64,000 nucleotides of DNA. Source: Acidobacteriota bacterium. Lineage in GTDB: Bacteria > Acidobacteriota > UBA890 > WLXD01. The translations under genes and the position numbers were made by a program. Shown piece after piece: positions 2,056 to 6,508 of this stretch. The notes below the pieces were generated by a model, which was given only the letters and a program-made list of their open reading frames with translations, made no database searches and had not been told where the DNA came from. How positions within the stretch are numbered: the first letter of the stretch is position 1; the number at the start of each line of letters is the position of its first letter. The stretch lies in the NCBI GenBank assembly GCA_963666055.2, contig CAXWPH010000012.1:160001-224000 (forward strand). The letters run 5' to 3'.

Positions 2056-2279
2056 CGGGCCCTGGTGAAAATGTGGCGGGCCTGGTTAGGGCGCGTTGGG
2101 GTCAGATGCAAGGCGCCTGAACCGGCACGCAGCGGTTGCATCGAAGCCGGGACGCTGCGGCCAAGATTTGACCCGCTGCCATCGTGGCAGGTATCGTCAA
2201 GGAGTCCTCTGGCTGATCTCCGTTGGCGAATCCCCTTACCCCGCAAGGGGTGGGTCCCCCAGACAGAAGGGGTTCGACG

Positions 2280-4496
2280 ATGCGAAACCGCGGTCATTTC
2301 TCCTTGGCGGGAGCCCTGCTCTTTGCGCTCGCCCTCGCGGCGCCGGCGAACGCACAAGAAGGGAACGATCCAATCCCGGTGCGCGTGCGCTACTTCGAAG
2401 GCACCGTCACCGTGCAACGTGCGCACGCCGCCGAAACTTCCGCCGCCCTGGTCAACTTGCCACTGGACGCCGGTGACCGCCTGTGGACGAACGATCAGGG
2501 GCGCGTCGAGCTGACGTTTGGCGACGGCACTACTATCTGGCTCGACCACCTAACGACCGTCGACATCGTGGCACTACCTCGCGCTGACACAGGCGACACG
2601 ATCGTCCGTTTGTGGGGCGGCTCGCTGATCGCCGAGCGACCGGGCGCCTATGGTCGCCCGGAGCAGGTACTTCGAGTGGATACCGCCGACGCCGCCATCG
2701 TGTTGCGACCGCAGGGCTCTTATCGCGTCGATCTCGACGACGAGCATCGCACTTGGCTGTCGGTGTACGACGGCAGCGCAACCATGGACGCCGGCGGACT
2801 CACCGAGATCATCGCGGCCGGCGAAACGACCTACGTCGAGCCCGGAACGGCGCCCGCCGAAGTAGTCGATTTCAATACCGCAGAACACGACAACTTTTCC
2901 AGCTGGCAGGTCGAGCGCTGGGTGGCCATGGTGGACACTCAGAACCACGTTCGCGACCGCGATTACCTGCCTGCGGAAGCGCGTCCGTACGCCGCCGACC
3001 TGGAGCGCAACGGCGACTGGGTCTACTACGACGACTTCTCATCCTACGCCTGGCAACCTTCTGTCGCTGCCGGCTGGGCGCCGTACCGTAATGGGCGCTG
3101 GGTCTACTCCTATGCCGGTTGGACCTGGGTGCCGTACGCGTCCTGGGGCTGGGCGACGTCGCACTATGGGCGCTGGCACCACACCCCAGCCTATGGCTGG
3201 ATGTGGTTCCCTGGAGCCGTGTATTCGCCGGGCTGGGTGAGTTGGTACGCCGGCAGCGGCTACTTGGGTTGGAGCCCGCTCGGCTACTACAACCGGCCGT
3301 TTCTGTCGGTGAATCTTTTCTTCGGCGGCCACTACGGCTACGGAAGCGGATATCACGGCGGCCGCAACTACGACTACGCAGTGCGCCGCGGCGGCAAGGC
3401 AGTGGCTGGTTTGGGGTACGCTCGCAACCTTGACGCCGACCATGGCTGGACTTTCGTAAACGCCGATCATTTCGGAACTGGCAAGACAGAGCTTCGCGCC
3501 ATCGGGCGAAACGCGGTTCCTCGTCAGGCGACGGGCAGCGCGGTGAGCTTCGAGGGCAACCTCCGGCCCCGCAAGCCGAGCCTCCTGGCCAACGTTGCAA
3601 GCTCGCGCGGCAACGGAGTCGGCGCCACACTACCGAGCCGCGGAGCTCCCGGGGGCAGTCGCTCGGCGGTACCCCGCGGTTCGCTGTCCAGGCCGGACGT
3701 GGCCTCCGGGGCGAGGTCGGCCACCCGCCGCAGCTCCCCACGGGACGTCGTCCAGACGCGGCCGCGGACGGCTCGCGGCGACAACATTCGGCCGTCTTCG
3801 CCGCGCAGCGGAAGAGGATCGAGTGCCGGCGGACGAGCTACTGCTCGGCCGCGCGGCGGATCCTCGTCACGGGGCTCCTCGAAACCACGAGCCGGCGCGG
3901 CCAGGCCGCGCTCCGGGACTTCGAGTGACTCGTTCTCGGCGGCGCTGGCGCGTCGGCCGGATCTGCCAACGCGAGCTAACCTGACCGGTGCTTCAACAAC
4001 AGGCAACGACGCGCGGCGCGCCGTATCGCGCACGCCGATCAGCCGCTACACGCCGCGCACCAGCCAGTACCAACCTCAGACTCGCACCTACCAGCCCAAT
4101 ACGAGTCGCTATCAGCCACGCAGCGGAATCTACCGACCCACCGAGGCGTCTACCAGGACACCGCAGCCGCGCTACCAATCCGCCTCGCCACGCTACGCTC
4201 CCTTGCGGACGCAACAGTCGGCGAGGTCACGGTACATGCCGTCGATCCAGCTGCGAAACGCGTTCGGCTCTCGGTCGAGCGGGTCGAGCGGGTCGAGCCG
4301 ACGATCGTTCTCGGCACCACGATCCTTCTCGGCACCACGATCCTTCTCGGCGCCACGATCCTTCTCGGCGCCTCGAGGGCCATCCATTAGCAGCCGCAGC
4401 GGTGGACTATCCGGGCGGTCGTTCTCTGCCCCGTCGCGCGGCGCATCCGGCAGATCCTCGGGTCGCAGTGCGACTCGCCGCTCCGGGAGAAGGTAG
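2280..4496 (+). CDS. exported FecR-domain / DUF6600 protein with long R/S/G-rich disordered tail
   Basis: Signal peptide (ALAAPANA-Q), FecR-like beta domain (GDRLWT..GRVEL), WAPYRNGRWVY..GWTWV..WGWATSHYGRW region, low-complexity C-terminus. Confidence 0.8.
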   Translation: MRNRGHFSLAGALLFALALAAPANAQEGNDPIPVRVRYFEGTVTVQRAHAAETSAALVNLPLDAGDRLWTNDQGRVELTFGDGTTIWLDHLTTVDIVALPRADTGDTIVRLWGGSLIAERPGAYGRPEQVLRVDTADAAIVLRPQGSYRVDLDDEHRTWLSVYDGSATMDAGGLTEIIAAGETTYVEPGTAPAEVVDFNTAEHDNFSSWQVERWVAMVDTQNHVRDRDYLPAEARPYAADLERNGDWVYYDDFSSYAWQPSVAAGWAPYRNGRWVYSYAGWTWVPYASWGWATSHYGRWHHTPAYGWMWFPGAVYSPGWVSWYAGSGYLGWSPLGYYNRPFLSVNLFFGGHYGYGSGYHGGRNYDYAVRRGGKAVAGLGYARNLDADHGWTFVNADHFGTGKTELRAIGRNAVPRQATGSAVSFEGNLRPRKPSLLANVASSRGNGVGATLPSRGAPGGSRSAVPRGSLSRPDVASGARSATRRSSPRDVVQTRPRTARGDNIRPSSPRSGRGSSAGGRATARPRGGSSSRGSSKPRAGAARPRSGTSSDSFSAALARRPDLPTRANLTGASTTGNDARRAVSRTPISRYTPRTSQYQPQTRTYQPNTSRYQPRSGIYRPTEASTRTPQPRYQSASPRYAPLRTQQSARSRYMPSIQLRNAFGSRSSGSSGSSRRSFSAPRSFSAPRSFSAPRSFSAPRGPSISSRSGGLSGRSFSAPSRGASGRSSGRSATRRSGRR
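4302..4373 (+). repeat. 18-bp tandem repeat x4 encoding RSFSAP
   Basis: cgatc(g/c)ttctcggc(a/g)cc(a/t) x4 inside the CDS; preceded by 9-bp ggtcgagcg units at ~4273-4298. Confidence 0.95.
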
Positions 4497-4503
4497 CAGC
4501 TGG

Positions 4504-4878
4504 CTAGTTCAGCGCCGGCCATCCGGCGTCGGCCGCATCGATGGAGATCCGGTCCTTGAACGACTCCCAGGTAAAATGCCGGTGCAATATCTCGGTCTCA
4601 TCGGGCGCCCAGCACCACAAAACATTAGGATCGGGGCTGCGGAAATCGACCGTGAAGATACCCTTTGGCTGGGCACCAATCTCGAGAATCACGCGCGCCC
4701 ACTCATCGAGCACCAGCCGAGTCTCGGCGTCGACTTCCTCGGCTGCCGACGGGTCAGATTCCTGCTCCTGGCGCAGCTCGCGCATGCGTCGACGCGTACT
4801 CGCGGTCACCTGGTTGACCAGGCGTAGCGCCCGATTCGCCTCGTCCAGAGAGAATATTCGGAAACGATGGTGCGACAC
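4504..4878 (-). CDS. DUF2203 family protein
   Basis: RIFSLDEAN...VDF...LWCW..E.EI.H.H...F..R pattern; GTG 4878 with purine-rich RBS. Confidence 0.8.
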   Translation of the reverse strand: MSHHRFRIFSLDEANRALRLVNQVTASTRRRMRELRQEQESDPSAAEEVDAETRLVLDEWARVILEIGAQPKGIFTVDFRSPDPNVLWCWAPDETEILHRHFTWESFKDRISIDAADAGWPALN

Positions 4879-4948
4879 GGCTTCCCTACCCCCTTTTGCA
4901 CGAACGGTAGCACGGTAACGACTTGTCAAGGAAACTGGGCATCCCATC

Positions 4949-4977
4949 TTGCCTCATGATGGGGTCCCGGCTATGAT
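4949..4977 (+). promoter_or_regulatory. sigma70-type promoter
   Basis: TTGCCT-17 bp-TATGAT. Confidence 0.6.
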
Positions 4978-4983
4978 TCCGTA

Positions 4984-5179
4984 CTGCCCCAGCCGCTGAG
5001 GGCGGGATGGTCAGCCCCCCCACACCCCCGACCCCCGCCCTTTGAAGGGATTCCGGGTACCACCACAGCCCACCCCACCGGAATCCCTCTGCTCAGAAAC
5101 CGGTGCGGCGGCCAAACTGGCCGCCGCACCGGATTGAAATTCAGAGAAAGCCGGGCTCGTCCCGGCTTTCTCTACATTT
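4984..5179 (+). ncRNA. candidate structured sRNA or trpS leader with two C-rich loops
   Basis: Four consecutive hairpins downstream of the promoter, last one terminator-like; no credible ORF. Confidence 0.55.
5143..5179 (+). terminator. intrinsic terminator-like hairpin
   Basis: AGAGAAAGCCGGG-ctcgt-CCCGGCTTTCTCT then acattt. Confidence 0.6.
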
Positions 5180-5215
5180 GGGTGCCTACTCGGACGACCC
5201 CGGCAGGAGCAACGT

Positions 5216-6214
5216 GTGGACGTGGCGGTATCGCGCATATTCTCCGGAATTCAACCCACCGGCGATCTCCATCTGGGGAACTACTTCGGCGCGGTGCGCA
5301 ACTGGGTCAGATTGCAAGACGAGTACGAACAAACCATTTATTGCGTAGTCGACTATCACGCCATCACCCACGAGATCGACACCGACGGCCTTCCCGCACA
5401 TTCGCTACGGCTTGCCGGTGACCTGATTGCGTGCGGCATCGACCCCGAGCGCTCGATCCTCTTCGTACAGTCGCACGTGCCCGAGCACACCGAGCTCGCG
5501 TGGGTTTTCAGCGCGTTCACTGCGCACGGCGACCTCAGCCGCATGACGCAGTTCAAGGACAAGTCCGAACGTAGCGGCTACGTCAACGCGGGGCTGTTTA
5601 CCTACCCGGTGTTGCAGGCCGCGGATATTCTCCTGTACCGGTCCGATGGCGTTCCGGTCGGCGAGGATCAGTCCCAGCACCTCGAGCTGACGCGAGGCAT
5701 TGCGCACCGGTTCAATCAAACAGTGGGCACCGAGTTCTTTCCCGACGTCCAGACCATTCTCACTGCCGGCAGCCGCATCATGTCGCTGGCTGATCCGACC
5801 CAGAAGATGAGCAAGAGCCTGGGCGACAAGCACTACATTGGGATCATGGAGCCAGCGGATTCGGCGATCAAGAAAATCCGTTCCGCAGTAACCGACAGCG
5901 GCGGCGCGGCGGGCGACGAGCTAAGTGCCGGTGTCACCAACCTCCTCGGCATCTTGCGACTGTTGGACGCCGACCAGCTCGCCGATCAGATGAGCGCCGC
6001 GGCACGGCAAGGTGAGCTCATGTACGGCGATCTGAAAGCTGCCGTCGTCGAGCATCTAATCGCCGCTCTAGAGCCCATACGCGCGCGGCGAGCAGAGCTC
6101 GCCGATGCCGACATCGCGGCAACGCTACGCGCCGGCGCCGAGCGAGCCGCCGAGATAGCCGCCCAGACGATGAGCAGCGTGCGCCGACTCATCGGAGTCG
6201 GCGCGACCTACTGA
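5216..6214 (+). CDS. trpS: tryptophan--tRNA ligase
   Basis: SGIQPTGDLHLGNY (HIGH-like), YPVLQAADIL, VPVGEDQ, KMSKS. Confidence 0.98.
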   Translation: MDVAVSRIFSGIQPTGDLHLGNYFGAVRNWVRLQDEYEQTIYCVVDYHAITHEIDTDGLPAHSLRLAGDLIACGIDPERSILFVQSHVPEHTELAWVFSAFTAHGDLSRMTQFKDKSERSGYVNAGLFTYPVLQAADILLYRSDGVPVGEDQSQHLELTRGIAHRFNQTVGTEFFPDVQTILTAGSRIMSLADPTQKMSKSLGDKHYIGIMEPADSAIKKIRSAVTDSGGAAGDELSAGVTNLLGILRLLDADQLADQMSAAARQGELMYGDLKAAVVEHLIAALEPIRARRAELADADIAATLRAGAERAAEIAAQTMSSVRRLIGVGATY

Positions 6215-6285
6215 AATCACCTGGACGCAAGCAAACCGCCGCGGACGCGGGAAAGCAGGCGCAACCTGTGACCCTTCCTGTCCTG

Positions 6286-6374
6286 TAGTAGTCATTATTA
6301 ATCACTATAAGTACTTATAACGTTCTATCCGATATTAAAAATGTGTTGCACTCTGCATATCAGTTCGATACATT
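6286..6374 (+). promoter_or_regulatory. AT-rich promoter with palindromic operator-like site
   Basis: TTGCAC(6346)-17 bp-TACATT(6369); perfect 14-bp palindrome TATAAGTACTTATA at 6306-6319 in an AT-rich tract. Confidence 0.6.
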
Positions 6375-6380
6375 CCTGAA

Positions 6381-6508
6381 CATACTGAGTCACAGCGAGC
6401 GGGATTGGGTCTCCCCCTTGCATAGACCAGGAAATGCTCTGAGGAGCGCGTCGCCTGTGTTACGACCGGGGAGGTGGGACAGTCGGCGACGCGTTCTTCA
6501 TTTTTTTT
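6381..6508 (+). ncRNA. candidate sRNA (~130 nt)
   Basis: Between promoter and terminator stem GAGGAGCGCGTCGCC/GGCGACGCGTTCTTC + T8; no downstream plus-strand gene (next gene is convergent). Confidence 0.55.

Follow-up and report, generated by a model that had tools for sequence, protein, structure and literature searches.

Structured RNAs upstream of aminoacyl-tRNA synthetase genes include the T-box leaders of trpS and the Escherichia coli thrS operator, the geometry of which is that of 7-nt anticodon loops, and the Acidobacteria have noncoding RNA motifs of their own in Acido-1 and Acido-Lenti-1. Similar in design to the locus described here are two groups of small RNAs that display C-rich loops on adjacent hairpins. 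6C RNAs are defined by two hairpins with a run of at least six C in each loop (PMC1950547); the mycobacterial 6C RNA B11 is reported to have C-rich loops that bind G-rich 5′ UTRs without chaperones (PMC6486639), and a 6S-like RNA, scr3559, is distinct from 6C (PMC8539372). For the cuckoo sRNAs, cotranscription with a neighboring gene is known (PMC4615179).

We examined an intergenic locus upstream of trpS in a 64,000-nt stretch of an acidobacterial genome (contig CAXWPH010000012.1, positions 160,001–224,000; herein the window), for which the original prediction had offered either an unannotated small RNA of ~195 nt or a non-T-box trpS attenuator. It is very probable that the locus encodes a functional RNA, and this RNA is a real family, previously uncatalogued, though the supplements of motif surveys may hold it. 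The first of the two proposals is supported by a class-wide core, a conserved promoter and G-U changes in the stems; the length of ~195 nt applies only where hairpins H3 and H4 exist (family f1).

Architecture and genomic setting

The promoter listed in the original prediction is present on the + strand and is of the sigma70 type, with a −35 element TTGCCT (4949–4954), a 17-nt spacer and a −10 element TATGAT (4972–4977), and no other promoter-like site occurs within 4300–5600 (shuffle mean 0.3). The promoter would place the transcription start of the RNA at ~4983–4984. A TTGC..TA[TAG][CGA]AT pattern lies 62–69 nt 5′ of H2 in 18 of the 20 loci from relatives' genomes, the remaining two being one variant and one locus cut off by a contig end. 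A single-stranded 5′ leader (4984–4998, + strand) reads CCCCAGCCG in most of family f1 and differs in family f2.

The 206-nt stretch has a minimum free energy of −110.3 kcal/mol (z = −8.46), and none of 200 shuffles is equally stable. Its predicted fold contains both of the tandem C-loop stems that had been proposed. H1 (4999–5041, + strand) has 11–12 bp with a floating 2-nt bulge, the pairs being kept while the position of the bulge moves and family f2 gaining one G-C pair, and encloses a C-rich loop of 17 nt (5013–5029). H2 (5046–5088, + strand) has a near-invariant stem of 10–11 bp across relatives; in this genome it comprises 11 bp and a 21-nt loop (5057–5077) with CCCAC/CCA repeats. The AGCCC..ACCCC pattern said to be common to both loops is borne out by the sequence, CCCAC occurs three times in loop 2 and once in loop 1, exactly one 7-nt repeat unit of loop 2 is missing in one lineage, and both loops are predicted to be ~97% unpaired. 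Within loop 2, the near-invariant module GCCCACCCCA (5068–5077, + strand), which is predicted to seed pairing with ribosome-binding sites of the GGGGUG(GG) type, is identical in 40/40 aligned matches, of which the 20 metagenomic ones were retrieved by a pattern containing this motif. A genome scan for C-rich hairpins missed H2 through its C-fraction filter and is hence unsuited as a control.

Downstream of this pair, H3 (5100–5132, + strand), first described as a 15-bp hairpin, consists of 14 Watson–Crick pairs and an A-U pair closing a 3-nt loop, and H4 with its U-rich tail (5143–5175, + strand) is a predicted moderate intrinsic terminator, in agreement with the terminator-like hairpin originally placed ~40 bp before trpS. 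The H4 hairpin itself (5143–5173) has 13 bp and ends 42 nt 5′ of the trpS GTG (5216); a simple terminator scan did not call it, and since its tail holds five T in eight nucleotides it would be a terminator of moderate strength. H3 belongs to family f1, where its structure is retained despite differing sequences (12–16 bp in most, imperfect in one genus) and where the terminator role falls to it in two genera. Among 14 distinct f1 loci, 12 have H4. It is absent from f2, where the interval up to the next start codon contains just a weak, variable hairpin and lacks a terminator with a U tail. Weak pairing between the 5′ leader and the 5′ arm of H4, worth 3.5–9.5 kcal/mol, is predicted for the nascent f1 RNA in most of 12 loci. 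H3 and H4 are additions of family f1, and the conserved unit is H1+H2 (4999–5088); because H3 and H4 are confined to f1, the RNA would be ~190–195 nt long in this genus and a leader-derived core of ~105 nt in f2.

The RNA is flanked by a divergent DUF2203 gene that lies outside it (4504–4878, − strand; Pfam PF09969) and by trpS downstream (5216–6214, + strand; TIGR00233 above cut-off, GTG start at 5216). Of the 20 genome loci, one is cut by a contig end and the other 19 all have DUF2203 next to the RNA; trpS lies downstream wherever the contig extends that far. In 14 of the 20 genomes the RNA is followed first by a gene for a class I/II aminotransferase, and where this gene intervenes trpS starts about 1.2–1.35 kb farther on. 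On three metagenome contigs (L174, L177 and L178) the intervening aminotransferase is reduced to an N-terminal remnant of 35–64 codons, an independent loss resembling the state in genus g1 and in G005. On the far side of DUF2203, a FecR-DUF6600 gene (2223–4496) has its stop 8 nt from the convergent DUF2203 stop and carries an 18-nt tandem repeat (SRSFSAPRSFSAPR..) in its Ser/Arg-rich tail (4300–4375 of the window).

Elsewhere in the genome, ARAGORN calls a tRNA-Pyl(CUA) at contig C5:65608–65685 (L261) with no PylS reaching the family cut-off; this call, amid repeated Ser/Thr-kinase-like genes, is probably spurious or atypical. There are also two tRNA-Sec calls, and tRNA clusters are duplicated on different contigs (Lys-Glu-Thr at C7:18700–19226 and C10:20556–21078; Sec at C6:7932–8029 and C13:66090–66187), possibly as strain duplicates in the assembly.

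Distribution and constraint

BLAST searches of the 5.7-Mb genome with the individual hairpins returned only this locus and chance matches of 14–23 nt; the element is single copy, and a genome-wide repeat, one of the outcomes that would have counted against the original prediction, is ruled out. Of 61 relatives' genomes, 20 gave a BLAST match to the element, all from one order, and a covariance model recovered the same 20 among 26 genomes of this uncultured class, with one copy in each and including 12/12 of high quality. A 21st class genome carries an element cut by a contig end. In four of the remaining five genomes trpS gave no match, and the fifth has a trpS fragment at a contig end; DUF2203 is missing in all four of these five that were tested for it. 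Because these assemblies lack the trpS locus, the absence of the RNA is best read as reflecting assembly gaps. In metagenomes, a loop-only pattern gave 25 matches, of which 20 were confirmed by the covariance model, and every confirmed match (20/20) adjoins DUF2203, the aminotransferase or trpS. Genome and metagenome loci together form an alignment of 40 rows with 31 distinct sequences.

Beyond the class, we found no copy in 138 sampled genomes of other classes (second covariance model under strict filters, with 28 candidates scored per genome), no significant match in DUF2203 neighborhoods (0/17 loci) and no covariance-model match in 26 trpS loci of other classes. One genome flagged as unpublished (G047) counts only toward tallies such as those of the 61 relatives and the 138 other-class genomes and underlies no claim. 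A pattern scan of 185,579 genomes gave at least 116 matches, with the flanking stem in none of those inspected, the pattern being too loose to extend or bound the range, and a viral scan gave two matches, both by chance.

The H1+H2 core is 84–89% identical between families f1 and f2 (89–93% for H2 alone), as against about 51–66% for TrpS. The original prediction depended on structure being conserved among relatives, and H1+H2 is indeed present in 21 of the 26 class genomes. The covariation looked for in the relatives' DUF2203–trpS regions is weak by comparison: the structure is kept, but only 1 of 22 pairs shows a two-sided change (31 distinct sequences) and most pairs never vary. The compensatory change, from G-C to A-U at one pair in H1, occurs in 4 of the 31 distinct sequences, and all three one-sided stem changes counted, one of them in H1, are G-U on the + strand; the G-U changes and the compensatory pair together support an RNA transcribed from the + strand.

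Candidate function and rival readings

We hypothesize, with a probability of roughly 0.55, that the element is a trans-acting, Hfq-independent small RNA, which would base-pair through its C-rich loops with ribosome-binding sites of the G-rich GGGGUG type; type IV pilus genes are possible targets. Transcription would begin at ~4983; in family f1 the RNA would end at H4, with read-through into trpS, and in f2 it would be released from the aminotransferase–trpS leader by processing or Rho termination. Pairing of the exposed loops with such sites would lower translation of the target mRNAs, possible examples being pilM and other type IV pilus genes. The genome (95.7% complete) has no Hfq match (PF17209) and encodes rho. 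The element has no read cover in four metatranscriptomes and three possible RNA runs, in which the organism is barely present.

The loop motif CACCCC is this genome's anti-Shine-Dalgarno sequence CACCUCC minus the U; its pairs with GGGGUG would therefore be Watson–Crick, whereas the ribosome has to form a G-U wobble with that sequence. In keeping with this, GCCCACCCCA favors GGGGUG over GGAGGUG, and the duplex predicted on the pilM site has −19.7 kcal/mol vs −9.5 for the 16S tail. If the target reading is true, type IV pilus production is tuned by a one-base variant of the anti-Shine-Dalgarno sequence that singles out the GGGGUG subclass of ribosome-binding sites. Two other partners were rejected: mimicry of or pairing with 16S/23S rRNA is no better than for shuffled loops (p = 0.31–1.0), and the DUF2203 mRNA, as a cis target, has a G-rich Shine-Dalgarno (SD) site chiefly in genus g1.

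Ranking of 4535 predicted start regions against the loop module, by means of our own simple gene caller that places some starts wrongly (DUF2203 among them), put pyrG second and pilM third. Three of 15 pilus genes fell in the top 23 (p = 5e-5, the category having been picked after the fact), and 1 of 40 shuffled modules placed three pilus genes there. At the SD position of pilM, GGGUG is found in 15/16 class orthologs vs 3/30 outside the class, a comparison that counts as one event because the class is one clade; canonical GGAG/GAGG/AGGA is found in 1/16 vs 20/30. GGGG is present in 13 of the 30 outgroup pilM sites, and the three outgroup GGGUG cases are those of family f32, which has no detectable copy of the RNA and in which there may be a different C-rich RNA. 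The f32 loci (L460, L465 and L467, outside the class) share an identical stretch 5′ of pilM that ends in GGGGUGAGCG, the same SD type as that of family f2 pilM.

Other candidate sites gave a mixed picture. G-rich sites of the pilus ABC ATPase gene, pilS and pyrG are kept across f1 and not in f2, and pilO drifts toward canonical SDs. Of the genes picked blind, a SPOR gene keeps GGUG, which is a valid SD half on its own, in 5/5 other f1 genomes, and a TPR gene and coaD keep their sites in 0/4 each (some starts uncertain). Over the whole genome, the complementarity of start regions to the loops does not exceed that to shuffled loops, and strong sites are retained in relatives in 11/49 pairs, inside the shuffled range, or in 2/37 once four hand-picked genes are removed. 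Of all 5-mers in 527 ortholog families, GGGUG is retained most often (8/23 pairs), but all eight pairs come from pilM, the pilus ABC ATPase gene, pilS and pyrG, around which the regions had been chosen; shared 8-mers in 18 of 167 orthologs are due to descent. Given this mixed outcome of the retention, blind and outgroup tests, the link to pili is a lead and not a result.

The pilus leaders have features of their own. In f1, a TTGAC-17-TACAA/TACTA promoter is conserved upstream of the pilMNOPQ operon, whose 5′ UTR is ~45 nt long (L290–L306). The pilM leader of this genome (contig C14, about 187507–187580, − strand) is a candidate cis element in its own right; by eye, a short hairpin is seen in both families (in f2, GGCAG/CUGCC around a GGGG loop) and four G-runs in f1. 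The leader of pilA, encoding the major pilin (contig C15, about 2197060–2197110; L353–L374), has a conserved GGGG..CCCC just 5′ of a canonical SD in both families.

The near-invariant stems, which set the element apart from 6C and cuckoo RNAs, need further explanation. Together with the modular repeats they are, in form, about equally suited to a protein-binding RNA, which is the main rival to a trans-acting sRNA. Candidate binders of C-rich RNA include Rho and KH-domain or S1-type proteins, one of which the CCCAC repeats, held on two invariant stems, would bind and titrate as CsrB does CsrA. We consider such a sponge unlikely, although the distribution of CCCAC over the two loops, the deletion of exactly one 7-nt unit in one lineage, a stem sequence conserved in a manner more typical of protein recognition, the lack of a genome-wide excess of mRNA partners and the presence of rho would all be expected of it. 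It has, however, no linked partner gene (DUF2203 occurs outside the class without a significant match to the RNA nearby, 0/17 loci), a single copy offers few sites, and the experimentally studied C-rich twin-loop RNA, 6C, works by pairing (PMC6486639).

Somewhat more doubtful still is a cis-acting leader of the (aminotransferase)–trpS operon, either a non-T-box attenuator or a synthetase-feedback element, in which TrpRS might read CCA triplets (the Trp anticodon) or the 5′ leader might serve as an antiterminator against H4. The constant presence of trpS downstream is what such a leader would require, and no second promoter-like site precedes trpS in the window; in f2, which has no terminator, the core probably serves as 5′ UTR of the operon. 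Loop 2 contains four CCA triplets in 35/40 loci and two in the other five, but loops rich in C and A would contain CCA by chance, and loops of 12–22 nt are unlike the 7-nt anticodon loops. Similarly, the predicted pairing of the f1 leader with the H4 arm is opposed by a terminator fold favored by 11–20 kcal/mol. There is, moreover, no covariance-model match in the 26 other-class trpS loci and no Rfam match in 20 trpS loci. The trpS attenuator of the original prediction is hence unlikely: the aminotransferase comes first in 14/20 genomes, neither a leader peptide (uORF) nor a UGG codon is conserved, and terminator hairpins are found in one family only. A leader-peptide Trp attenuator was rejected, ATG/GTG starts occurring within the element in 15/40 loci in varying frames and lengths with no TGG among their first 30 codons. 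Also rejected were a uORF rich in Pro that begins in H1 and a GTG-TGG-ACG-TGG frame overlapping the trpS start, which are confined to this genome or vary in frame.

It seems very improbable that the CCA repeats form a tRNA-Trp anticodon array, in which invariant stems would present them to dimeric TrpRS for T-box-free feedback on aminotransferase–trpS, the loops possibly having a second role in trans on pilus mRNAs. Least likely of all is an element of the DNA or of the opposite strand (a G-quadruplex on the G-rich template strand, a protein-binding DNA site or an antisense RNA), for which several G-runs on the − strand could be cited but against which stand the G-U stem changes (A-C on the − strand), the + strand promoter kept at a fixed distance and the conservation of stems that a quadruplex does not need.

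Relation to described RNA families

No Rfam 15 family reached its cut-off at the locus (E up to 10), and a search of 12 homologous loci (E up to 1) returned nothing relevant; the unannotated status claimed at the outset thus stands. Collinsella-1 (24.4 bits vs a cut-off of 35) and sucA-II (23.7 bits vs 70) were rejected as chance matches of hairpin shape on H2–H4. 6S RNA (RF00013) has no match genome-wide, and the fold consists of four local hairpins in place of a long rod with a central bubble. Acido-1 and Acido-Lenti-1, which resemble the element as phylum-restricted structured RNAs of Acidobacteria, are not among the matches in either search (E up to 10 at the locus, E up to 1 on the 12 homologs). 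We found no prior description of the motif in the literature, with the proviso that the supplements of the Breaker-lab motif surveys could hold it, nor in the main text of a 2026 language-model survey of prokaryotic intergenic RNA, whose supplements could also do so.

With T-box leaders and the thrS operator, the element shares a structured RNA upstream of an aminoacyl-tRNA synthetase gene and, in f1, a terminator. It differs from them in having no conserved antiterminator and in the position of the synthetase gene, which is usually 1.2–1.35 kb off behind the aminotransferase, and from the thrS operator in loops much larger than anticodon loops. A T-box leader was rejected: there is no match at the locus, at 20 trpS loci or on the 12 homologs, the loops contain no UGG, and f2 has no terminator.

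Like the cuckoo RNAs RSs0680, SmelA075 and SmelA099, the element has adjacent hairpins that each carry an anti-SD-like loop (PMC4615179). In contrast to those RNAs, it is single copy, its stems are conserved and not variable, and its host has no Hfq match and lies outside the Alphaproteobacteria (PMC4615179). Membership was rejected, since the CCUCCUCCC motif is absent from the loops (CCCAC repeats, no CCUCC) and no Rfam match was obtained; two loop hairpins with near-invariant stems in another phylum take the place of the two to four hairpins with variable stems that characterize the alphaproteobacterial family.

The 6C RNA (RF01066) gave no match within 3500–6500 (E up to 10) or on the 12 homologous loci, and its best score genome-wide (20.5 bits, at another locus) compares with a gathering cut-off of 47 bits. 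Loop 1 has 6–8 C in most f1 and f2 rows and fewer in some f2 rows, but loop 2 consists of CCCAC repeats with a longest run of four C, where 6C loops have at least six. The stems are nearly invariant (two-sided change at 1/22 pairs, 31 distinct sequences), whereas those of 6C covary, and the host is an acidobacterium and not an actinobacterium: one member of the 90%-identity cluster of its pilin is labeled Acidobacteriota, and DUF2203 neighbors in the Atlas point weakly the same way. The likeness nevertheless extends to two adjacent C-rich-loop hairpins in a core of ~90–100 nt, a high-GC host without detected Hfq and the proposed pairing with G-rich ribosome-binding sites. 6C RNAs are also reported near partitioning and pilus-assembly genes, and pilus genes are here only candidate targets elsewhere in the genome.

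The kinship with 6C and cuckoo RNAs raised by the original prediction is therefore one of design, tandem hairpins with C-rich loops, and not of family membership, for which the tests fail in both cases. The locus is a class-wide, single-copy and very strongly constrained RNA gene in a phylum for which the literature searched yielded no description of a C-rich-loop sRNA, and the comparison suggests a repeated origin of regulators built from twin hairpins with C-rich loops, here in a high-GC lineage in which no Hfq was detected.
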